A stretch of 64,000 nucleotides of DNA, taken from positions 70,248,001-70,312,000 of the forward strand of contig CM059432.1 of the NCBI GenBank assembly GCA_030390025.1. Reading direction: 5' to 3'. A model generated the notes under the pieces. The model was given only the letters and a program-made list of their open reading frames with translations. It ran no database searches and was not told where the DNA came from. Positions 10,286 through 59,215 of this stretch are shown piece after piece. The DNA is from Squalus acanthias. Its lineage: Eukaryota. The position numbers were made by a program, and so were the translations under genes. Within the stretch, counting starts at the first letter, position 1. The number at the start of each line of letters is the position of its first letter.

Positions 10286-11681
10286 ATTAACTCTGGGTCT
10301 TGACTTCAGATGCTATGTACAGTATGTAACAATTTCAGTAGTTCAAATATCAGAATAACTTATAAGGCATACCTGTTGCTAAAATCCTGCTGATATTGAC
10401 TAAAGTGGGGAACTTTTGAGCCGGAAGCATGCAGAAACTTTGACTATGGATTATTGGAGCTGAGCGAAAGATCTTAGGACTGTAGTCTCTTCTTCTGTGG
10501 AGGTGGAGGTACCAAATGATCCCTGGCCACTTCTGAAATTGGGAACGATTGCAGATTAAAGTGAAGATGTCACACACTATATTGATGCCTGCAATGAGGA
10601 AAATGTTTCCCTGATGTTACCACAAAAAAGGGCTGTAGATTCCAGAGTCACACTTCTCAGCTGTTGCATATCATCACGGCTTGACTTCAAAGCCTGCAAA
10701 TGAATGTACTGTTCCTAGAATATCCTTCTCTTCAGGCGAGTACCCATGACATCTGGGTTGGTCTAGCTACTCGTGGTTGGGCTTGGTCCCCACATCCTCT
10801 CCCGCATCGTCATTGTCATTATCATAGTTGACGAGGAAGACTTCTTTTATCTTATGCCTCCTCCCCTTCAAGAGTGTCTTTCTCCTCTTTCTCATTGTCT
10901 GCTTTAATGGATCTGCAAGTAAAGGAGGTAATAAACTAAGAATGGGTGAGAATAACCCACTTGGAATTAAGGAAACAGACAAAAATTGAGGCAATTGGTT
11001 ATTTCCTGCTTCACAAGGATGCTCTGGCAACCGTGTAGTCTGCATCCACTAACCTGTGCTTGCACTGTCCCACCAATCTAGCCATCTCCCATGGCATGAG
11101 CAGAGTGCCTTCCCAGCAGCTCCATGGCCTGCTTGTTGTCGGAGGTGAGCTCCCTGATGTCAGGAATGACCCTTCTGGTCTCTTGCCTCTCATGAACATT
11201 CCGCACAGGCGTCTTCTGTAACAAGAATGAGGGAAATAAGTGAAGGCAAGCAATTGGCATTGGACAGCTGATGTAAGAAATCTGGTGCCATCATCCTGTT
11301 AAAGTGGAGGAAAGCATTTTAAAGTCCTGCATGCAAGTAGTTATTGTTAGGGGAGGTCGCAACATTTATTGTAAGATCCCGAGTTAATGTTCCCCTTTTC
11401 GCCACAATGCAGTGTGAAGGGTTATTTGTACAGCTATTAATTTTAGAGGGTGAAGAGTACATTGGTGCCCAGGGAAGAAAAGGGACAATGGTCGGTGTAC
11501 CTTGCATGCCCTTCTCAGGTCATTGAACTTTTTCATGCACTGGTCTGCTGGGGTGAGAGATTTGGCACACTGTATCACTGCTATCTTCATTCAAGATGTG
11601 GAGATGCCGGTGTTGGACTGGGGTGGACAAATGTGAGAAGTTGCACAACACCAGGTTATAGTCCAACAGCTTTATTTGAAA

Positions 11682-11718
11682 TCACAAGCTTTCAGAGCGC
11701 TGCTCCTTCGTCAGGTGA
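11682..11718 (-). ncRNA. Minimal type I hammerhead ribozyme motif (Penelope pLTR)
   Basis: The reverse complement reads tcac-CTGACGA-aggagc-agc-gctct-GAAA-gctt-gtga, with one G-U pair in stem II. Confidence 0.75.
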
Positions 11719-12576
11719 AGTGAAGAGATGCATATAGGCACAGCATATATAGTCAGAGAACACTGCCAGATGATTACAGTTAATCTTTCTAACTGCCCTT
11801 TATCACACCTCGGCAGAGAGATAATCACGGCAATCAAAGGTGTGGATGGTGTCCAAACAGGTCAGTCAGGAAAACATTACTTTGCTGGAAATCACAGCAG
11901 GTCCGGCCGCATCTGTGTAGAGAGAACAAGCCAACGACGACTCGAGTCTGGATGACTCTACATCAGGTGGGGTTACATGTAGCGTGACATGAACCCAAGA
12001 TCCCGGTTGAGGCCGTCCTCATGGGTGCGGAACTTGGCTATCAGTTTCTGCTTGACGATTATGCGTTGTCGTGTGTCTCGAAGGCCGCCTTGGAGAACGC
12101 TTACCCGAAGATCGGAGGCTGAATGTCCTGGCTGAAGGACATTCAGCCTCCGATCTTCGGGTAAGCGTTCTCCTAGGCGGCCTTCGAGACACACGACAAC
12201 GCAAAATCGTCAAGCAGAAACTGATAGCCAAGTTCCGCACCCATGAGGACGGCCTCAACCGGGATCTTGGGTTTATGTCACGCTACATGTAACCCCACCT
12301 GACGTAGAGTCATCCAGACTCGAGTTGTCGTTGGCTTGTTCTCTCTACACAGATGCGGCCGGACCTGCTGTGATTTCCAGCAAAAAAAGTTTTTTGTTTC
12401 TCATTCTCTTTGATGTAATGTTTTCCTGACTGACCTGTTTGGACACCATCCACACCTTTGATTGCCATGATTATCTCTCTGCCGAGGTGTGATAAAGGGC
12501 AGTTAGAAAGATTAACTGTAATCATCTGGCAGTGTTCTCTGACTATATATGCTGTGCCTATATGCATCTCTTCACT

Positions 12577-12613
12577 TCACCTGACGAAGGAGCAGTGCTC
12601 CGAAAGCTTGTGA
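12577..12613 (+). ncRNA. Minimal type I hammerhead ribozyme motif (Penelope pLTR)
   Basis: tcac-CTGACGA-aggagc-agt-gctcc-GAAA-gctt-gtga: stem I tcac/gtga, CUGANGA core, stem II ggagc/gctcc, GAAA, and a palindromic AGCT stem III. Confidence 0.8.
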
Positions 12614-12689
12614 TTTCAAATAAAGCTGTTGGACTATAACCTGGTGTTGTGCGACTTCTCACATCTTCATTCAAATTTCAGGAGATAAT

Positions 12690-13413
12690 GGCCCAGAAAT
12701 TGATCTCGCTCTGTTCCCGCGGGGGTAAGCCTTCCCCGCGATGTCTCACCTCGCTTATGCTTTTTCTGATCCAGCTCGCACGAACTTGATGTTCCAGACA
12801 TCAGCTGTGCTGGGCTTGCGTATCCCAGCGGCGTAGTGAATTCGTGCGAGCTGTGGGATCACGTGACTCAGTTAGAGCCAATGGCAGCACACCATCTTCC
12901 ATTCATAAGTCTCATGAATCTTACACCCCCCCAAAATAACAGCTAAACCTCAATTAAATTTTTTTTAAAAACCATCACATTAATAAAATAAGTATAGTTA
13001 ATTAAATTAACCATTTTAAATAAAAAATTAAATTTTTGAAAAAATTTAAAATCTTTTAAAAAGTTATAAAAATAAACTTACCTGTCTTTAAAGTCTATAA
13101 AAAAGATATACCTGTAAAAAAAAATTCAAAAAAATACTTAATTCACTACTTACCTTCTTAAAAGCGGGTCTTACTCCTCCTTTTTACATTTCCAAAATCT
13201 TCCCTACTTACCTGCGCGTCCAAAGCATGAAGTGCACAGCGTGCGCGCAGCCTGTAGCGCGCACGCGATGCACCCAGGCCCCGCCCCCTTTTCGGAAGAG
13301 CAATTGCCGGTTTTCAGCGCATGCGCAGGGCATGCAGAAAACCGGCAATTGGAGTGGGAATACGCGAGAGTATGCAGTGCGTACTCTCGCGTCCCGGGAT
13401 CAATTTTCGGCCC
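12690..13413. mobile_element. Harbinger-type MITE with AT-rich core
   Basis: TIR GGCCCAGAAATTGATC / GATCAATTTTCGGCCC. Shares gggatcacgtg..agccaat, aataaacttacct and the ccggtttt..gcgcatgcgca..aaaccggc hairpin with 22468-23170. The TSD is not clean. Confidence 0.75.
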
Positions 13414-14892
13414 ATACTTTTTTGTTGCTTCTTTTGCTGAATCTCATCCAGGCGGGTTTGTAAGTCAGCCTCATTGAAATTGTGAGCTATTCTCTGTTGC
13501 TTACCTGCAATGCCCTTCTCTGGCTAGATCTTCCAGTGGAAGACATTCTTTAAAAGTGGCACAAATTCATACATAAGCCATCCAGTACAGTTAGCTGACA
13601 GTCAACTCACTGAGCCAAGCACTTCCCTACTTACATACTTTCCTACTGGCTGTTCTCCCAGCCGACTGCTGCCCTCTCCAGTCAGACTTATACTTATTTC
13701 CAAGCACCCCCAGCATAGTACTCCCATTTTGTATAAGGAATACGCTAGAGAAATGACCAATGGATATTTAAATGAGCTGAACCTGCCAATCATCGCAGGG
13801 CCAGCGCTGCAGATGATCAGCAGGCTCAAGTCCCAGCTCAGGGACCCAAAGCCAGAATTTAAGGGCTTACCTGCCTTTCATCAGGATCTAACAAGCTCAT
13901 TTACATCATAATCAAGGGTAGCCATGTACAATTAGCATATCCCCTTATAAGTTACTGTTCAGTGTCGCCCACTGACTTTCACACTTTCACACTATGCACC
14001 GAAAACTCCAGCATCATCAGCATAATACATTTATGCTGCACATCTGACAAAGTTCAACCCCAACAAAAATTCATGAAGTGTAATGGTTATATACATCACA
14101 GATGCTGATCTCAGTATGCAAAAGTAGCTCCTGAGCTCGTAAGCAGCAAGACTGCAGGTTTCACTTTATATTCAGAGCACCAGAACCATTTATTGGCTTG
14201 TAAACAAGGCAGCTCCTGCATATATCATTTAAACGTCCTTTTGTCTACTTTTTCTCATAAATTGCTTCTGCTTTGAAAGTTTCTTCCTGTTTAATTTGCA
14301 GTCGATGGCTCATTTCACCAAGTGATATAATTCTTAGTTGAAACATTTTAGAGTGCATCAAACTTAATTATTTAATTATTTAAACATTTTGCAGTATGTA
14401 AACCAGACAGCTACCTATATTTATTACGTGAATTGTCCACATTTTCTCACTAAAATCTTATATTTGTAGCTGAGGGGCCCAATAAATGGGAAGCCAGCAG
14501 GAAAATAGTCAACAAAGTCCAATAAAAATGTAAATCTAGCTGCTTTCCGGTCCATGGAGGCAGTGTTGATTATTGATTTATTTTCTGTGGCCCAGTCAAA
14601 CAGTGCACAATACAACATTCAAAAGTTAATTGTTAATTGTATTTTTAATACTGTCTATAATCTCCCTTTGTACTCAATTTGAAACACTGCTCATTAAACA
14701 AATGTTTCTGATGTAACCCCTTTACCACTTCATAATTAATCCAAATTGCATTAAATCACTACAGTATTTGATTTGTAAAAACCTTAATTTCTATTTTTCA
14801 ACTCTACTGTGCAAGTATTATGTGAATGGGTGTTCCAAGAAGCTTAAGGGGGCAATTGTCTTCTTGAAAAAGTTTTTGACATGCCTTTTCCA

Positions 14893-15930
14893 GGGAGTGA
14901 GCCTATGGCAGTACAGTAGTAGCATTCCCACCTCTGAGTCTGAAGGTAAAGGGGTTCAAGCCTCAGTCCAGACAGCCCCAGTGAGTGGAGACAGGCTATA
15001 TTGGACTGGGTACTGTGCAATGAGAAGGGACACCAGTCACTGAAGGCGAGCATGCAGGTGCAACAGGCGATCAAGAAGGCAAACGGTATGCTGGCCTTCA
15101 TAGCAAAAGGGTTGGAATACAGGAACAGGGATACCTTGCTGCAGCTGTACAGGGCACTGGTGAGACCACACCTCGAGTACTGTGTACAGTTTTGGTCGCC
15201 TCATCTGAGGAAAGATGTTCTTGCCATGGAGGGGGTGCAGCGGCGATTCACCAGGCTGATACCAGGAATGGCGGGATTGACCTATGAGGAGAGACTATGT
15301 AGTTTAGGGATGTACACACTGGAGTTTAGAAGATTGAGAGGGGACCTCATAGAAGTGTATAAAATTCTGACAGGTCTAGACAGACTAGATGCAGAAGGAA
15401 TGTTTCCCTTGGCGGGTGAGAACAGAACTAGAGGACATAATTTAAGGATAAGGGCTAAACCATTTAGGACAGAAATGAGGGGGAATTTCTTCACTCAGAG
15501 GGTGGTGAACCTGTGGAACTCATTGCCACAGAGGGCAGTGTACGCCAGCTCATTAAATATATTTAAGAGGGAATTAGATGTATTTCTACAGGCAAAAGGG
15601 GTTAAGGGTTACGGAGAGAAGGCGGGGACGGGATACTGAATTGGAGGATCAGCCATGATCTCATTAAATGGCGGAGCAGGCTCGAAGGGCCGGATGGCCT
15701 ACTCCTGCTCCTATCTTCTATGTATCTATGTATCTATGTATATGGCTCTAAATACTGGGGTGACATCCAGCAGGGTAATGACATCCAAACAGAGCGACCA
15801 CTGGCTCAGTGGTAGTATTCCTGCCTGTGAGCCAGAAGAATTGAGTTCGGGTCCCACTTCAGTCCTGTCGAGTGGAGACTAAACTGCTGGTTCTGAATAC
15901 TGGGTTGACATCCAGCTAGGGTACTTGTAT
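14893..15930 (+). mobile_element. Tandem pair of tRNA-derived SINE-like units; the first is interrupted by a CR1
   Basis: A/B-box-like heads (tggcagtacagtagtagc...gggttcaagcc and tggctcagtggtag...gagttcgggtccc), each followed by gagtggagac...aatactggg.tgacatccagc. Confidence 0.45.
15001..15740 (+). mobile_element. CR1 LINE, 5'-truncated (ORF2 C-terminus and tail)
   Basis: [42 protein letters not shown]...RGHNLRI...FFTQRVVNLWNSLP, followed by a 3' UTR hairpin and a (ctatgtat)n tail. Confidence 0.92.
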
Positions 15931-27274: not shown

Positions 27275-28975
27275 TTTGTATCTATCTTCATGGTAGAAGA
27301 CAAAAAATAACATTCCATCAATAGTGGGGAACCAAGGGTCTAACGAGAATGAGGAACTTAAAGAAATTAGTATTGGTAAAGAAATTATACTGGAGAAATT
27401 AATGGGACTAAAAGTCGACAAATCCCCCAGACCTGAGGTAGCTACATGGATAGTGGAAGCATTGGTTTTGATCTTCCAGAATTCTATAGATTCTAGAACG
27501 GTCCCCATGGATTGGAAGGTAGCAAATGTAACCCCGCTATTCAAGAAAGGAGGGAGAGAGAAAACAGGGAACTATAGACCAGTTAGCTTGACATCAGTAG
27601 TAGGGAAAATGCTAGAATCTCTTTTTAGGGATGTGGTAACAGGGCACTTAGAAAATCATTATATGATAAGGCAGAGTCAGCATGGAGTTATGAAAGGGAA
27701 ATCGTGTTTGACAAATCTATTAGAGTTTTTTAAGGTTGTAAGTAGCAGGGTAGGTAAGGGGGATTCAGTGGATGTGGTGTATTTGCATTTTCAAAAAGCA
27801 TTCGATAAGGTGCCACACAAGAGGTTATTACACAAAATTAGGACGCATGGGATTGGGGTAATATATTAGCATGGATTGAGGATTGGTTAATGGACAGAAA
27901 ACAGAGAGTAGGAATAAACAAGTCATTTTCGGGTTGGCAGGCTGTAACTAGTGGGGTACCTCAAGGATCAGTGCTTTGTCCTCAGCTATTTACAATCTAT
28001 ATCAATGACTTAGATGAGGGGACCAAGTGTAATGTATCCAAGTTTGCTGACAATACAAAGTTAGGTTGGAAAATAAGCTGTGAGGAGGACACAAAGAGGC
28101 TGCAAAGGGATATAGACAAGTTAAGTAAGTGGGCAAGAGCATGGCAGATGGAATATAATGTGGAGAAAAATGAAGTTATCCACTTTGGTACGAAAAAAAG
28201 AAAAGCAAAATATTTTTTAAATGGTGAGAGACTGTTAGTATTTAGAGGGGCCTGGGTGTCCTTGTACATGAATCACAGAAAGTTAACATGCAGGTACAGC
28301 AAGTAATTAGGAAAGCAAATGGTATGTTAGCCTTTATTATAAAGGGATTGGAGTATAAGAGTAAAGTCTGACTACAATTATATAGGGCCTTGGTGAGACC
28401 ACATCTGGAGTACTGTGTACAGTTTTGGCCTCCTTACCTAAGGAAGGATATACTTGCCTTAGATGGAGTACAATGAAGATTCACTAGATTGATCCCTAGG
28501 ATGAGAGGGTTGTCCTATGAGGAGAGATTGAATAGACTAGGCCTATATTCCCTGGAGTTTAGAATAATGAAAGTTGATTTTAATGAACATATAAAATTCT
28601 TAAAGGGCTTGACAGGGTAGATACAGGGAGGATGTTTTCCCTGGCTGGGGATTCTAGAACTAGAGGGTCACAGTCTCAGAATAAGGGGTCGGCCATTTAG
28701 GACTGAGATGAGGAGAATTTTTTTCACTCAAAGGCTTATGAATCTTTGGAATTCTCTACCCTCGAGAGCTGTGGATGCTCAGTCATTAAGTATATTCAAG
28801 GCTGAGATAGATAGATTTTTGGACTCTAGAGGAATCAAGGGATATAGAGATCGGGCGGGAAAGTGGAGTTGAGGTCGAAGATCAGCCATGATCTTATTGA
28901 ATAGTGAAGCAGGCTCGAGGGGCCATATGGCCTACTCCTGCTACTAATTCTTATGTTCTTACTTATGTTCTTATG

Positions 28976-33139: not shown

Positions 33140-33928
33140 TATTGGAGAAAATGAGCAAAAAACATAAAAGGGCAATAAAAATCATTTTTATGGACACATT
33201 AGTATAAAAGGATAGTCAAGTTAGAGGGTAGAGCTACTAAGAGAAGGCAAACTTGTAGTGGAGAGTGATGGGTTGGCAGAGATACTAAATACATATTTTG
33301 CCTCTATTTTTATAAAGAAGGTGGATATTGGGGTTCCAGAAGCACCAGAAATCCACTGGCATATTGTGTTTACTTTTGTGCCAAAATGCTACTGAGGTTC
33401 TCAAAATCGTTAATGAATGTTTATCTTACCACTGAAATGAACACAACATTTTGGAAAATGTGATCCCCTGATACAACCTATGGTTAAAAATAGAATCACT
33501 TTTAAAATGAAGTCTGAACAAACAAATGCCACTCGACAGGTGTGTCATCGTTGTAAATGTTTCAACTCGTTTTAACACCAATTTACCCAATGACTACAGA
33601 ATGTTGTCCCACTATTTTCTGCATTTCCAAGTTCTACTAAAATTGTTAAAGACCTTTCAGACCCTCAAGGTTTGCAGGTGGGATCAGTATTGCTGGATTT
33701 CATTATTTTGCTGTTTTTTTTAATTTTTGTAAATGCAGCTGACTTTTACAAATCGAGAGTAGAAGAGAGTGAGGGAGAATTACTTGGGCACCAGGTTCAT
33801 AAGAAAGGGCTCGATAACCCAACTTTTCCAGATACTGAATGACCTGCTATAAATTTCTGTTTTCTTTTTTGATGACTTGGCAAACCTTTTTCTGGGGATG
33901 AAAAGAACCAAAAGAACGGCAATGAACA

Positions 33929-36137
33929 ATGGAGAGGGATAGGGCCATACGGCAGGGCAGGGTTTATAATTGGGGGAGGGGTAATTATGATGCGATTAGG
34001 CAAGAATTAGGGAGTATAAGATGGGAACAGAAACTATCAGGGAAAGGCACAAACGAAAAGTGGAGCTTTTTCATGGAGCAATTACTGCGTGTCCTTGATA
34101 GGTATGTCCCTGTCAGGCAGGGAGGAAATGGCCGAGTGAGAGAACCATGGTTCACAAAAGAGGTTGAATGTCTAGTCAAGAGGAAAAAGGAAGCGTATGT
34201 AAGGATGAGAAAACAAGGTTCAGTTGGGTCGATTGAGGGGTACAAGGTAGCAAGGAATGAGCTAAAAAAAGAGCTTAGGAGAGCTAGGAGGGGGCATGAG
34301 AAGTCCTTGGCGGGTCGGATCAAGAAAAATCCCAAGGCTTTTTACTCTTATGTGAGAAATAAAAGAATGACCAGGGTGAGGGTAGGGCCGGTCAAGGACA
34401 GTAGTGGGAACTTGTGCATGGAGTCAGAAGAGATAGGAGAGGTGATGAATGAATACTTTTCGTCAGTGTTCACCGAGGAGAGGGGCCATGTTCTTGAGGA
34501 TGAGAGTGTGATAAAGGTGGATAGGCTGGAGGTGGTAGATGTTCTGAGGGAAGATGTTTTAGCAATTTTGAAGAACCTGAGGGTCGATAAGTCCCCTGGG
34601 CCAGATGGGATATATCCTAGGATTCTTTGGGAGGCAAGGGAGGAGATTGCAGAGCCTCTGGCTTTGATCTTTGGGTCCTCACTGTCCACGGGGATGGTGC
34701 CAGAGGACTGGAGAGTGGCGAATGTTGTTCCTCTCTTCAAGAAAGGAAATAGGAATGACCCTGGTAATTATAGGCCGGTTAGTCTTACTTCGGTGGTTGG
34801 TAAGATAATGGAAAAGGTCCTGAGGGATAGGATTTATGACCATTTGGAAAGGGGCAACTTAATCAGGGATAGTCAACACGGATTCGTGAAGGGTAAGTCT
34901 TGCCTAACAAATTTGATTGAATTCTTTGAGGAGGTAACTAAGTGTGTAGATGAAGGTAGAGCAGTTGATGTCGTATACATGGATTTCAGTAAGGCGTTTG
35001 ATAAGGTTCCCCATGGTCGTCTCATGAAGAAAGTAAGGAGTTGTGGGATAGAGGGAAATTTGGCCGATTGGATAAGTAACTGGCTAACTCATAGAAGGCA
35101 GAGGGTGGTGGTGGATGGAACATTTTTGGACTGGAGACCAGTTACCAGCGGTGTGCCACAGGGGTCGGTGCTGGGTCCTCTGCTGTTTGTGATTTTTATC
35201 AATGACTTGGAGGAGGGGACTGAAGGGTGGATCAGTAAATTTGCTGATGACACCAAGATTGGTGGAGTAGTGGATGAGGTGGAGGGCAGTTGTAGGCTGC
35301 AAAGAGACATTGATAGGATGCAGAGCTGGGCCGAAAAATGGCAGATGGAATTTAACCCTGATAAGTGCGAGGTGATTCATTTTGGTAGGGCAAATTTGAA
35401 TAAGGATTACAGGGTCAACGGCAGGGTTCTGAGGAACGTGGAGGAGCAGAGGGATCTGGGGGTTCATATCCACAGATCTCTGAAGGTTGCCACTCAAGTG
35501 GATAGAGCAGTAAAGAAGGCCTATGGTGTGTTAGCGTTTATTAACAGAGGGTTTGAGTTTAAGAACCGTGAGGTTATGCTGCAACTGTACAGGACCTTGG
35601 TGAGACCACATTTGGAATATTGTGTGCAGTTCTGGTCACCTCACTATAGGAAGGACGTAGAAGCATTGGAAAGAGTGCAAAGGAGATTTACCAGGATGCT
35701 GCCTAGTTTGGGGGGGAGGTCTTATGAGGAAAGATTGAGGGAGTTGGGGCTTTTCTCTTTAGAGCGGAGGAGGATGAGAGGCGACTTAATAGAGGTTTAT
35801 AAGATGATGAGGGGGATAGATAGAGTGGATGTTCAGAGACTATTTCCTCGGGTAGAGGCAGCTGTTACAAGGGGGCATAACTATAAGGTGCATGGGGGGA
35901 GATATAGAAGGGATGTCCGAGGTAGATTCTTTACTCAGAGAGTGGTTGGGGTGTGGAATGGACTGCCTGCTGTGATAGTGGAGTCGGACACTTTAGGAAC
36001 TTTCAAGCGGTTATTGGATAAGCACATGGAGCACACCAGAGTGATAGGGAGTGTGATAGCTTGATCTTGGTCTCGGACAATGCTCGGCACAACATCGAGG
36101 GCCGAAGGGCCTGTACTGTGCTGTACTGTTCTATGTT
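33929..36137 (+). mobile_element. Young 5'-truncated CR1 LINE with open 711-aa ORF2 (RT domain, no endonuclease)
   Basis: KSPGPDGIYPRIL, NYRPVSLTSVVGK, QHGFVKGKSCLTNL, YMDFSKAFDKVPH, SGVPQGSVLGP, KFADDTK with no stops over 33929-36064. 3' tail ctgtactgttctatgtt; possible short TSD aacaa at 33925-33929 and 36138-36142. Confidence 0.95.
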
Positions 36138-38539: not shown

Positions 38540-41130
38540 AGGTCAAGCATGGGCAAGGAAACCTCCTGCTGATTACCACCTACCATCCTCCCTCAGCTGA
38601 TGAATCAGTACTCCTCCATGTTGAACACCACTTGGAAGAAGCACTAAGAGTAGCAAGGTCACAGAATGTACTCTGGGTGGGGGACTTCAATGTCCATCAC
38701 CAAGAGTGGCTCGGTAGCACCACTACTGACCAAGCTGGCCGAGTCCTGATGGACATAGCTGCCAGTCTAGGCCTGCGACAGGTGGTGAGAGAACCAACAT
38801 GAGGAAAAAACCTACTTGACCTCGTCCTCACCAATCTACCTGTTGCAGATGCATCTGTCCATGACAGTATTGGTAGCAGTGACCACCGCACAGTCTTTGT
38901 GGAGACGAAGTCCCATCTTCACACTGAGGAAACCCTCCATCGTGTTGTGCGGCACTACCACCGTGCTAAATGGGATAGATTCAGAACAGATCTAGTAGCT
39001 CAAAACTGGGCATTCATGAGGCGCTGTGGGCCATCAGCAGCAGCAGAATTGTATTCCACCACAATCTGTAACCTAATGGCCCGGCATATCCCTCACTCTA
39101 CCATTACCATCAAGCCAGGGGACCAACCCTGGTTCAATAAGGAGTGTAGAAGACTATGCCAGGAGCAGCACCAGGCGTACCTAAAAATGAGGTGCCAACC
39201 TGGGGAAGCTTCAACACAGGACTACATGCATGCTAAAAAGTGGAAGCATCATGCTATAGACAGGGCTAAGCGATTCCACAATCAACAGATCAGATCAAAG
39301 CTCTGCAGTCCTGCCACATCTAGTCGTGAATGGTGGTGGACCATTAAACAACTAACGGGAGGAAGAGGCTCCATGAATATCCCAATCCTCAATGATGGTG
39401 GAGCCCAGCACGTGAGTGCAAAAGACAAGGCTAAAGCGTTTGCAACCATCTTCAGCCAGAAGTGCCGAGTGGATGATCCATATCGGCCTCCTCCTGAGGT
39501 CCCCACCATTACAGAAGCCAATCTTCAGTCAATTTGATTCACTCCACGTGATATCAAAAATGGCTGAGCACACTGGATACAGCAAAGGCTATGGGCCCCG
39601 ACAACATTCCGGCTATCGTGCTGAAGATTTGTGCTCCAGAACTAGCCGTACCTCTAGCCAAGCTGTTCCAGTACAGCTACAACACTGGCATCTATCCGAC
39701 AATGTGGAAAACTGCCCAGGTATGTCCTATCCACAAAAAGCAGGACAAATCCAACCCAGCCAATTACCGCCCCATCAGTCTACTCTCAATCATCAGTAAA
39801 GTGATGGAAGGTGTCATTGACAGTGCTATCAAGCGGCACTTACTCACCAATAACCTGCTCACTGATGCCCAGTTTGGGTTCCGCCAAGACCACTCGGCTC
39901 CCAACCTCATTACAGTCTTGGTTCAAACATGGACAAAGGAGCTGAATTCCAGAGGTGAGGTGAGAGTGACTGCCCTTGACATCAAGGCAGCATTTGACAG
40001 AGTGTGGCATCAAGGAGCCCCAGTAAAACTGAAGTCAATGGGAATCGGGGGGAAAACGCTCCACTGGCTGGAGTCATACCTAGCACAAAGGAAGATGGTT
40101 GTGGTGGTTGATGGTCAATCATCACAGCCCCAGGACATCACTGCAGGAGTTCCTTAGGGCAGTGTCCTAGGCCCAACCATCTTCAGCTGCTTCATCAATG
40201 AACTTCCCTCCAACATAAGGTTACAAATGGGGATGTTCGCTGATGACTGCACAGCGTTCAGCACCATTCACAACTCCTCAGATAATGAAGCAGTCCATGC
40301 CCGCATGCAACAAGACCTGGACGATGTTCAGGCTTGGGCTGATAAGTGGCAGGTAACATTTGCGCCTCAGAAGTGCCAGGCAATGACTATCTCCAACAAG
40401 CGAGAGTCTAACCACCTCCCCATGACATTCAACAGCATTACCATCGCCGAATCCCCCACCATCAACATCCTGGGGGTCACCATTGACAAGAAACTTAACT
40501 GGACCAGCCAGATAAGTACTGTGGCAACAAGAGCAGGTCAGAGGCTAGGTATTCTGTGGCGAGTGTCTCACCTCCTGACTCCCCAAAGCCTTTCCACCAT
40601 CTACAAGGCACAAGTAAGGAGTGTGATGGAATACTCTCCACTTGCGTGGATGAGTGCAGCTCCAACAACACTCATGAAGCTTGCCACCATCCAGGACAAA
40701 GCAGCCCGCTTGATTGGCACCCATCCTCCACCTTAAATATTCACTCCCTCCACCACTGGCATACCGTGGCTGTAGTGTGTACCATCTACAAGATGCACTG
40801 CAGCAACTCGCCAAGGCTTCTTCGGCAGCACCTCCCAAACCCACGACCTCTTTCACCTAGAAGAACAAGGGCAGTAGGCGCATGGGAACACCACCACCTC
40901 CAAGTTCCCCTCCAAGTCACACACCATCCTGACTTAGAAGTATATCGCCGATCCTTCATCGTCGCTGGGTCAAAATCCTGGAACTCCCTACCTAACAGCA
41001 CTGTGGGAGTACCTTCACCACACGGACTGCAGCGGTTCAAGGCGGCGGCTCACCACCACCTTCTCAAGGGCAATTAGGGATGGGCAATAAATGCTGGCCT
41101 TGCCAGCGATGCCCACATCCCATAAACTAA
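38540..41130 (+). mobile_element. Non-LTR retrotransposon (CR1/Jockey group, distinct from the vertebrate-type CR1 copies), 5'-truncated, lightly decayed ORF2
   Basis: APE motifs TYHPPS, WVGDFNVHH, LLDLVLTN, SDH. RT motifs GPDNIPAIVLK..APELAVPLAKLF, NYRPISLLSIISKVME, QFGFR, LDIKAAFDRVWH, AGVP*GSVLGP, FADD. A few stops and frameshifts. 3' end gggcaataaatgctggccttgccagcgatgcccacatccc. Confidence 0.9.
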
Positions 41131-43042: not shown

Positions 43043-43333
43043 AAATATTTCATCAGATATTACAACACTGATGGACAGTAGTATTATAATACTCACAGGT
43101 TAGCAGGGATTTAAAAAAATCATGTTTTAGGAAAGGTATTTGAATGAACAAATATATGAAAGGAATTATATTTTTGAATTAATGTTATATAATTGAAGTG
43201 GTACTTTTTGGAAAGATCTTTTTAGAAAGATTTAAACTCAAATTTGTCATGTTTTACTTTTGTTCAAAAGGTCAGGCCTGACATTGATGATCTAAAATCA
43301 CTTACTATTTGTGTACTTTTATCTTTTCTACAG

Positions 43334-44262
43334 GCCTTACAGCTGCAGCATCTTTGGTGTCCTTGGCCTGGGCCTTGGCCTCCTACCAGAAGGCTCTTCG
43401 TGACTCCAGAAATGATAAAAAACCCATCAGCTACCTGGCTGTTATCATTCAGTTCTGTTGGCATTTCTTCACTATTGCAGCCAGAGTCATCACATTTGCC
43501 TTGTTTGCATCAGTTTTCCAGCTCTATTTTGGGATCTTCATTGTCTTGCATTGGTGCATCATGACTTTCTGGATTGTTCATTGTGAAACAGAGTTCTGCA
43601 TAACCAAGTGGGAGGAGATTGTATTTGACATGGTTGTTGGAATAATCTACATTTTCAGTTGGTTCAATGTTAAAGAAGGAAGGACTCGGTGTCGGCTGTT
43701 CATCTACTACTTTGTAATCCTTTTGGAAAACACTGCCTTGAGTGCTCTGTGGTACTTGTACCGAGCACCTCAAATAACAGATGCTTTCGCCATACCAGCG
43801 CTTTGTGTTGTCTTTAGTAGTTTTTTGACTGGAATCGTTTTTATGTTGATGTATTATGCCTTTTTTCATCCAAATGGACCAAGGTTTGGCCAGTCACCAA
43901 GCTGTGCTTGCAAGGAGCCTGTGGCCACTTTCAATTTGCCTGCAGAGGCGGCAGCAAATGTTTTGAGGGCTGCGTCCCAAAACAGGGAACAGAAACTCAC
44001 AGAAAGGGATGGTTGTATGCCTGTTTTTCAGGTCAGACCTACTGCACCCTCCACGCCATCTTCTCGCACTCCACGGATAGAAGAAACTGTGATCAAAATT
44101 GACCTTTTGAGAAACAAGTATCCAGCATGGGACAGACATGTTTTGGACAGAAGTCTGAGAAAGGCCATCCTTGCATTTGAATGTGCATCCTCGCCACCTC
44201 AACTCCAATACAAGGATGAAGCCCTCATTGAAGAACAGCTGGAGTATGAAACAACTCTGTGA
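43334..44262 (+). CDS. XKR4: XK-related protein 4 (phospholipid scramblase), terminal coding exon
   Basis: The translation [25 protein letters not shown]...[54 protein letters not shown]...[17 protein letters not shown]...LEYETTL* closely matches my recollection of the vertebrate XKR4 last exon. A polypyrimidine tract and acceptor (ttttatcttttctacag|G) end at 43333, giving a phase-1 intron. Stop TGA at 44260-44262. Confidence 0.95.
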
Positions 44263-56787: not shown

Positions 56788-57250
56788 AAAGTGTACAGAA
56801 TGTCGTCTGTGAATTCCATTACTTTTCTTTAAAATTGAGAAACCTAGCTGTTGGGCAAGGCTCATAGTGCAGGTTACCGCCAATGATGAAAAGATTAGAA
56901 GAGATGTTTAGGTGATTCTAAGCTTGGGTTCTAAAAGCCTATAAATTATAGGACTAAGGGGAGACTGAATACAGCCTTATATATAGTTTTATACACACCC
57001 GCACGCATACACACAGACACATTCATATACATACACACTAGTTGATCTCCCAAGAGCTTCCACATGTGAAGTCAAGACCAAGTGTAGTCTTCAGATGAAG
57101 CAGGGTTGGGAGGGAATTGTTGGAACGGGACACACAATGTAATTTAGACCCTATTTTAAAGTCATACATTCAGTCCTTATTTTTATATTTCTATTATAAA
57201 TTCTGATGTCCACATTTATAATAAAAACTGCCTATGTAAACTTGGTACAC

Positions 57251-57390
57251 TGTGAGAAGTTGCACAACACCAGGTTATAGTCCAACAGCTTTATTTGAAA
57301 TCACAAGCTTTCGGAGCGCTGCTCCTTCGTCAGGTAAAGTGAAGAAATACATATGGGCACAGCATATATAGTCAGAGAACAGTGCCAGAC
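57251..57390 (-). mobile_element. Penelope pLTR fragment with hammerhead motif (57301-57337)
   Basis: Near-identical to 11632-11770. The reverse complement contains ttac-CTGACGA-aggagcagcgctcc-GAAA-gctt-gtga. Confidence 0.88.
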
Positions 57391-59215
57391 GACTAGTCAT
57401 AGGAAGTATAAAAATAAGGTTATGTTTGACTTTAAAATGTGGATTGAATTGCATCTGGGGTACCTGGTCCAATTATCCCCCTACTCTCTAACCCCAATTC
57501 ATCTGAAGACTACACTTGTTCTTAAGTCCCATGCACAGTGCCACGGGAGATAATATACAGATAATATAATAAATACATATATAAAATATACAGTATTCAG
57601 AGGAATATGCCAATCAAAAGGGAACCTGCATTCTTGACTTCAGACTTTACTTGTTATATCTAAAGGCATAGGTTAAGAACAAACTTTGATTCTGAAACAG
57701 TAGTTAATAAATCCAAATTAATATGATGTTATTTGCCATGTAAACTAAACTCAAGGTGAATGTGCCATTTATGTACTGTATTTTTTGTGCTGCAGCAGAA
57801 TGATTTTTTTTGTAATATATTGTACATTATAACTACCTCAACAGTGGTTTACTTTATGCATACAGTTTGGAGATTCATTTTGTGGTAATTCGTTCAAGAA
57901 TGGACTTTGCATTTTTCAATCACTGATAATATTTTCTTTGTAAGTTTTGTTGAGACTTTTAATGTGAGTATTTTCTTTTAGGCAGCATTGAGTAGTGTGC
58001 AGATACATGACAATGGGGTAGATTTTCAACTTGCTACCTGGGCATAAAGCTGACATTGCGGATCAGCCGGCCGTTATAGAAACTTCCCGATTAGAAATGA
58101 AAATTGAGTGGTTTCTATGATGGGCAGCTGATCCACAACGCCAGTTTTAGGCCCACCCATAAATTTACCCCATGTGTTCTGTTTCACAATTGTAATTAGG
58201 TTTACATAGGAAGTAGAAATCAAGAGATGTAACATTACATACTATATCTGCCATTACATGAACATTTTACCTTTTTATATATTTCAACAAATTTTACATT
58301 CCTTACGCTATAAATGTAACTAATGTTTCTTTTTATGTCTGAACATACACCCTTCAAATCCTAATAATGTCAGCTATACAGAAAGGATTTATATTTCAAA
58401 ATATATTGCCACTTGCCAAATATTAATATTCTGATCTCAGTGAGCTATTTATTGGTCTAAAAGGTGCTTACTATGCTTGATTCTGAAAGTGCTTTTTCAT
58501 TTCTCGGTAAGTACATCAGCCGATCAACCTTAAACACCTAGTGAGAAGATAGAAAATTATGTTTCTGTTTACACAATAGTATGATGAACACTTAGGTCGG
58601 TGCAAGTACCATAGTGAAAGATGCAGTAGAAAAACAAATGTGCTTTTAGTAACCCTCTTATAATACACCTGGAATTGTGTGGGAAGAAAAGATCTTACTG
58701 TGAATAATTAAAAACCGATTGAAAATAATATGATCCCTTTCTATCAAACATTCCTTTAATAATACAGACTGCAAAGATTGGTACTGGCTAGTAACTGCTA
58801 ATGTAATGCTATTCAGCAATAGAACAAGTTGTATTGAACACAAAAGTATCAGAATGTGCATTGTGTATTTATTATTTTGACTGTAGAGTGAGTTGAATCA
58901 TTATGGTGATGGAAATATAAGGTAGTATTTCAAATAAGTATTAGTTCATACTTGTTTAGTTCTTCTTGTAAAAGTAAAGAATTGGAATACTTGAAATTTT
59001 GTATACTGTATCTCAAAATTTTTGTACACTTTTTATTTTACTGCAGCACAAGGTACCAAAATCATTGAATAAATATACTGTGGCCATTTTAGCAGCTGAA
59101 TTTGGTTGTCTGTGTCCTTTTTGATATCTAATGCTGATGACAATTCTACAGTTTCTAGTGGGCAAGAAAAAAAAGGGTCTGCAGATTGTTTTGATCTGAA
59201 ATTGACTTTCCACCT

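Follow-up and report, generated by a model that had tools for sequence, protein, structure and literature searches.

A palindromic insertion of a putatively Neptune-type Penelope-like element in the genome of Squalus acanthias

How two nearly identical copies of the end of a retroelement come to face each other within a single insertion is the question raised by a palindrome of about one kilobase in the genome of the shark Squalus acanthias. It lies in a stretch of 64,000 nucleotides, referred to here as the window, and a preliminary description made from the letters alone had presented it as two Penelope 3' ends fused into a mobile hairpin unit bounded by ribozymes. The analysis described below shows the palindrome to be real and, in all likelihood, a young and ordinary insertion of a Neptune-type Penelope-like element (PLE), whose apparent fold-back junction is unusually clean and whose pattern has already been published for PLEs.

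Architecture of the palindrome and identity of its arms

An inverted-repeat scan of the window resolves a left arm (11631-12129, minus strand) and a right arm (12136-12664, plus strand), separated by a 6-nt loop (12130-12135). The inner arm pair (11871-12129/12136-12394) extends over 259 nt at 97% identity and the outer pair (11631-11880/12415-12664) over 250 nt at 98%, while in the arm-to-arm alignment 9 of 499 columns (1.8%) are substituted and the right arm has 30 extra nt (12385-12414, plus strand). The left arm (499 nt) comprises the end of the PLE open reading frame (ORF), the 3' region and the pLTR, and the right arm (529 nt) is an inverted copy devoid of a tail. At 11880/11881, where the left arm is without the 30-nt segment, the family has a longer segment, of which the right arm retains both ends and the left arm none. 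The inverted arms previously described, with their loop and indel, are thereby confirmed, and the palindrome is a real structure. The unit is not symmetric: a 36-nt extension of the left arm (11595-11630, minus strand), hereafter the tail, has no mirror image and had been overlooked. No second copy of the palindrome was found within the 64-kb window.

The unit is enclosed by a target-site duplication (TSD). A direct-repeat search detects ATCTTCATTCAA at 11583-11594 and 12663-12674, with 1068 nt between the two copies, and these are its only occurrences in the window. The chance expectation is about 1.2e-7 per site, and about 2e-4 for any 12-mer across 50x50 positions, so that the pair is far beyond chance and supports the earlier view of a single insertion event around the whole unit. 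The first 2 nt of the right copy are also the final 2 nt of the right arm, and the TSD is either 12 bp with 2-nt microhomology or strictly 10 bp.

Concerning the nature of the element, each arm starts with 51 codons and a stop, corresponding to the last 51 codons of a PLE ORF and hence to the C-terminal end of its GIY-YIG endonuclease (left arm, 11976-12128, minus strand; right arm, 12137-12289, plus strand, 96% identical to the left). The 51-aa peptide shows 94% identity to the C-terminus of P0122, a protein with a reverse transcriptase (RT) domain (Pfam RVT_1, E 5e-9), a CX4CxxC (CxxxxCxxC) linker and a GIY-YIG-type C-terminus, and 84% identity to P0125, which itself matches Pfam GIY-YIG (E 2e-5); a Pfam search with the arm peptide alone gave no match. 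A search for longer proteins yielded matches in 19 of 23 candidates, every named one of them from sharks, and the relatives P0122, P0126 and P0128 carry a CX2-5CxxC linker between RT and endonuclease (EN), the linker region itself being located outside the window. Together with the head-to-head arms, the match to P0122 bears out the earlier reading of two Penelope 3' ends that meet at their truncated 5' termini. The combination of RT, CxxC-type linker and GIY-YIG C-terminus is given as the Neptune/Nematis signature in the description of these groups in PMC8557442, and Neptune and Poseidon are the vertebrate PLE groups named in bioRxiv 10.64898/2026.07.22.740005. Judging from sequence, the arms would thus be of Neptune type, a putative assignment in which Nematis is set aside by host range only; compared with the Neptune clade, only the last 51 codons are present in the locus. 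The features that characterize EN+ PLE insertions are all found, namely the origin from an RT/GIY-YIG ORF, an inverted 5'-truncated pLTR, a one-sided tail of 30-40 bp, a TSD and a hammerhead motif in the pLTR.

A candidate extension of the left-arm family match up to 12131 was dropped, since the family carries Q, not P, before GHS. Separately, the PLE C-terminal fragment also occurs in predicted shark isoforms (P0123, P0134, P0138 and P0139, of XRCC5, FAM210B, FAM204A and septin 5a, respectively), with P0123 and P0138 sharing the same terminal read-through peptide; these are either exonised family copies or artefacts of gene prediction.

Insertion ends, related species and the history of the arms

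The left junction was followed in contigs of public sequencing runs. Five of the 24 runs listed contain at least half of the query words, and the contigs of four runs were compared with positions 10900-12170; two of these runs are samples of organism A, each from a different study, and the others come from organisms C and D. In both samples of organism A a contig links the left flank, across the TSD, to the tail, with 0 differences over 11101-11616 in the first and 2 differences over 11101-11618 in the second, at depths close to those of the flank (17.1 vs 16.4 and 23.2 vs 19.7). These contigs enter the element by only 22 and 24 nt, under the 31-nt bridging rule, and run X1 may be the assembly's own source sample. 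The pieces listed for 10900-12170, a stretch that ends before the right junction, include no loop-spanning contig.

In species C and D, 1481-nt contigs follow the left flank at 3.4-3.6% divergence (23/669 and 25/689), leave the reference at 11568 and 11588, and continue for 184 and 166 further letters. Both species carry the PLE family, and since the contigs of family-bearing species part from the reference at these points, the site is probably empty in C and D. The search for an empty site in related species, which had been suggested as a check, therefore gave a partial answer: the departure of the contigs is observed, and the insertion is probably missing at this site in the two species.

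The same contigs give a view of the family. Contig depth summed over the arm reaches 1e4-1e5 times that of the flank, a value which provides no copy number and is taken only to mean that the family is abundant. Loose contig ends pile up just before 11595 (at least 108 in X1, 76 in X5 and 38 in X14, among the contigs listed) and before 11597 (at least 55 in X14 and 58 in X16, again among those listed); as they do so in all four runs, the end of the tail is the family's usual insertion end. Whereas this shared end is observed, the reading of 11595 as the start of first-strand cDNA is drawn by analogy from Poseidon_Ac. The tail region may form an AC-rich stem-loop (z -1.9; 8 of 200 shuffles equally stable). 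Ahead of 11595 the consensus is AT-rich, with an agreement of about 0.4 that partly reflects family read-through, and no target preference was derived from it. As a side observation, the minus strand of 11595-11660, antisense with respect to XKR4 (see below), shows a pyrimidine-rich stretch that ends in AG, much like a splice acceptor, and lies just ahead of an ATG present in some family copies. Intron retention is known in PLEs.

Other copies of the family also contain inversions. Four of the 15 joints listed (31 in total) are between opposite strands, at 11630/11721, 11671/11719, 11793/11832 and 11901/11947; with offsets of 39-91 nt, they are not exact analogues of the present junction. Neither the exact loop junction nor a conserved family motif was found at any locus in metagenome_contigs, and a family motif gave no locus in viral_contigs either; given that the family motif itself is absent from metagenome_contigs, these blanks are uninformative on the copy number of the junction.

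The differences between the arms carry information about their common origin. Six of the nine fall at CpG, although CpG columns make up only 48 of 499 (Fisher p=4e-5). Four differences, at 11642, 11694, 11962 and 12061, are private to the left arm, the family allele being that of the right arm; the remaining five, which do not appear in the 40 of 82 variant rows listed, are probably private to the right arm. At position 12053 both arms share an allele (an E-to-K change) from which 97-99% of the depth-weighted family contigs differ in four of four runs, and the arms also agree at the subfamily-polymorphic sites listed (11632, 11670, 11822, 12024 and 12056, among the same 40 of 82 rows). They are, moreover, truncated within 6 nt of each other. 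A shared rare allele combined with differences mostly at CpG indicates that the arms began as one sequence, and most likely they were identical at insertion, while gene conversion between the arms could also produce the shared allele at 12053. Outside CpG the arms diverge at 3 of 451 columns, a level about five times lower than that separating the flank from species C and D, which is consistent with a young insertion, the estimate being one that rests on three events.

Hammerhead motifs and host gene context

The hammerhead reported for each arm was found by inspection, as a minimal type-I motif at 12577-12613 on the plus strand and at 11718-11682 (11682-11718) on the minus strand. The right-arm motif consists of a 4-bp stem I, the core, a bulged A, a 5-bp stem II, a palindromic AGCU where stem III would stand, and U17. 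In the left arm a private C-to-T change at 11694, with the family allele taken from the contigs, turns the G10.1-C11.1 pair into G-U. An Rfam search at gathering score gave 0 matches in the whole 64-kb window, and a strict hammerhead descriptor, which did not permit the bulged A, gave none; the folds are no more stable than those of shuffled sequences (z -0.9 and 0.1). Located on opposite strands, the two motifs leave one in sense in each transcript, and for either strand the sense hammerhead is predicted to be locked in the long stem, its bases having a mean probability of 0.035 of being unpaired. Instead of the tandem same-strand repeats with at least two hammerheads that characterize a retrozyme, there is one hammerhead per strand, in inverted arrangement. 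Published accounts describe single minimal hammerheads as not cleaving as monomers (PMC4209133) and hammerhead cleavage as dispensable for Poseidon_Ac insertion in vitro (PMC11167929). Next to the right-arm motif, a TATA-like and a TCACT motif with a 21-nt spacing (12544-12576, plus strand) face outward and are mirrored in the left arm; they resemble the putative pLTR promoter described for rotifer Penelope in PMC3846280, and could represent a candidate promoter.

The last coding exon of XKR4 lies at 43333-44262 on the plus strand, its ORF (43333-44259) covering residues 289-597 with 98.7% identity to the closest named shark protein. For residues 1-288 of the four XKR4 proteins compared, the window contains no meaningful match; with no upstream exon in the window, those exons would precede base 1, and the palindrome would be located in the last intron of shark XKR4 (plus strand). 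The palindrome encodes no protein. The hairpin of about 500 bp that it would form in the XKR4 pre-mRNA would be no more than a passive by-product; its predicted fold has -1031.6 kcal/mol, 519 pairs and a longest perfect helix of 133 bp, so that a role of this double-stranded RNA (dsRNA) as an ADAR or Dicer substrate is structurally plausible. If edited or diced, shark intronic palindromes would be the counterpart of inverted Alu pairs. A Drosophila precedent exists in the siRNAs reported to be produced from Penelope inverted repeats (PMC3681739).

Several further repeats occur in the window. A solo 145-nt family end at 57251-57395 (minus strand, 94%) carries a hammerhead, has no tail and shares its terminal boundary with the right arm. 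It is located inside an older, decayed inverted repeat of unassigned family (about 57074-57191/57403-57523, 73%; overall 57074-57523), with no TSD by eye. A second long inverted repeat, with arms of about 290 bp at 32029-32319/32837-33139 (94-98% in pieces) and a spacer of about 517 nt, consists of mixed fragments unrelated to the Penelope arm. Short inverted repeats clustered to the right of the insertion (12688-13415) are possibly a MITE or another repeat, and an inverted pair of 105-nt arms (63272-63376/63433-63537, 84%) presumably represents LINE/SINE 3' ends, tail to tail. Long LINE-type reverse-transcriptase frames, which we take to be CR1/L2-like, are present at 33926-36064 (plus strand; 712 aa open), 38803-40736 (plus strand), 14950-15639 and 27297-28306.

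Formation of the second arm and relation to known elements

Very probably the palindrome is an ordinary, one-off inverted insertion of a PLE that is now immobile. As for its second arm, we favour cis fold-back of the first-strand cDNA, a reading that we regard as reasonably probable; the fold-back synthesis already put forward in the preliminary description is the likeliest origin given the matched arm ends, the shared 12053 allele and the CpG-type differences. The element endonuclease would nick the target with a 10-12-nt stagger, as the TSD suggests, and the RT would start at the tail end (11595) and halt after about 545 nt, within the endonuclease coding region. The cDNA 3' end would then fold back on 2-3 nt of microhomology and prime on its own strand, generating the mirror arm. 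This copy would stop or be cut at the tail boundary, which is observed, and would presumably join the other target end via the 2-nt microhomology; the arms would subsequently decay separately, mainly at CpG, with the left arm losing 30 bp. If first-strand cDNA synthesis was primed from the left TSD end, its product would read as the plus strand of the left arm does, and the loop consists of the family's next letters, the 3' end of which is complementary to the arm end over 2-3 nt, as expected for a cDNA that folds back and primes itself. The family sequence past 12129 matches the window from its sixth to its twelfth letter (12131-12137), so the loop is imperfect for fold-back: either 4 nt would have been lost and another change added, or synthesis would have slipped back by 13 nt on its template. 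Likewise, the different deletions of the two arms at the A-rich segment oblige fold-back to invoke the later 30-bp loss, and they would fit two templates as well.

Two templates are what twin priming could provide, in which both nicked target strands prime their own cDNA, one at the tail end and the other with its start at the tail boundary, possibly on two RNAs, and the tips are joined in trans. Its precedent is the Poseidon_Ac protein, described in PMC11167929 as cutting and extending both strands, with a predicted dimer and two RT starts that bound the tail; besides the unlike deletions of the arms, it gains from the fact that the solo copy at 57251, like the right arm, terminates at the tail boundary. 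A trans join need not be symmetric, however, and here the arm ends fall within 6 nt of each other; the arms share the rare 12053 allele and the states at the five subfamily-polymorphic sites listed, and their differences look like subsequent CpG decay, so that we consider twin priming possible but unlikely. The palindrome could also have pre-existed in the template, through self-priming on antisense RNA followed by integration, as proposed for rotifer Penelope; head-to-head palindromic junctions are read in this way in PMC3846280, and the geometry here is head-to-head. Against this very unlikely course, the tail end is the fixed family end, like the RT start mapped in vitro on sense RNA, and first-strand cDNA already gives an antisense template, leaving antisense RNA unneeded.

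The notion of a non-autonomous palindrome that moves by being copied in its entirety, with its two ribozymes as boundaries or as the means of its release, draws on the single TSD around the whole, on a minus-strand read-through transcript that would end in the tail and be usable in trans in principle, and on the rotifer case reported in PMC3846280, where PLE ends alone mobilised host DNA. It does not hold up well here: the hammerheads are on opposite strands, buried in duplex and of the minimal kind that is inactive as a monomer, the promoter-like motifs point outward, the XKR4 strand has the tail in antisense, no second copy exists in 64 kb, and other family copies invert at other positions. 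In addition, Poseidon_Ac RNA needs about 55 nt past the RT start (ORF nucleotides to 172, with the start at 111-118), and by analogy the inserted copy would be without them. The mobile-unit reading is highly improbable, and re-mobilisation of this palindrome is unlikely to much the same degree. Finally, a fold-back artefact of assembly or sequencing has to be considered, because assemblies are known to have difficulty with inverted PLEs (PMC8557442) and no loop-spanning contig is among the pieces listed. Such an artefact would yield identical arms, whereas nine CpG-biased substitutions are seen, on both sides, together with a family-derived 30-bp indel; the unit is closed by a TSD, and, the possible identity of X1 with the source sample notwithstanding, single contigs at flank-level depth carry the left junction in two samples from two studies. 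An artefact is therefore extremely improbable.

A more general extension of fold-back would be that shark Neptune elements integrate via an obligatory cDNA hairpin, the RT folding its first strand back on 2-3 nt of microhomology and the endonuclease opening the product at the tail boundary. We regard this as unlikely, although the part that concerns junction statistics is plausible. Were it true, the very numerous shark copies would record PLE second-strand synthesis in their loops, host introns would be seeded with dsRNA hairpins that are several hundred bp long and almost perfect, and some hairpins would be re-mobilised whole from antisense read-through. The shark retroelement exists in very many copies, and the present locus is of little weight by itself. 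It does retain the footprints of PLE integration, namely a fixed start, a tail, microhomology at tip and end, and once-identical arms. The formation of PLE inverted repeats and of the second strand is still described as unvalidated in PMC11167929 and PMC3846280, and the value for deciding between fold-back and twin priming lies in the shark population of loops, not in a single locus. A literature search, confined largely to papers outside subscription, found no publication devoted to shark PLE palindromes.

Comparison with known systems places the palindrome among published PLE structures. An inverted 5'-truncated copy with a one-sided tail of 30-40 bp and a TSD is the insertion pattern reported in PMC8557442 and PMC3846280. 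As in the EN+ PLE inverted-pLTR insertions presented there (Arkhipova et al. 2013, PMC3846280; Craig et al. 2021, PMC8557442), the copies are head-to-head, with a palindromic junction, a one-sided tail and TATA/TCACT motifs; the TSD is 9-10 bp in those insertions vs 10-12 here, and, unlike them as far as described, both copies are cut at the same point with no ORF body between, in a shark host. The motifs are similar to the PLE minimal hammerheads of Cervera and De la Pena (2014, PMC4209133) in their short stem I, the bulge before stem II, the palindromic 15.2-16.2 and the arrangement in opposite-strand pairs, and differ from those detailed there in the U at 17, the G-U at 10.1-11.1 (left arm) and a distance of about 860 nt between motifs, compared with the 100-700 bp reported for such pairs; no shark is named in the passages cited. 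Poseidon_Ac of Anolis (Frangieh et al. 2024, PMC11167929), from another clade, resembles the present element in its fixed insertion ends that bound the tail, and in the capacity of the tail region for an AC-rich stem-loop; unlike in Poseidon_Ac, the hammerhead here is without an ATG, and a consensus of low agreement suggests one just beyond the tail in some copies. With the non-LTR retrozymes outlined in bioRxiv 10.64898/2026.07.22.740005 it shares a non-coding, hammerhead-bearing sequence related to PLE pLTRs, but those are tandem arrays of at least two consecutive hammerhead units, whereas the shark palindrome is inverted, single and endowed with ORF remnants.
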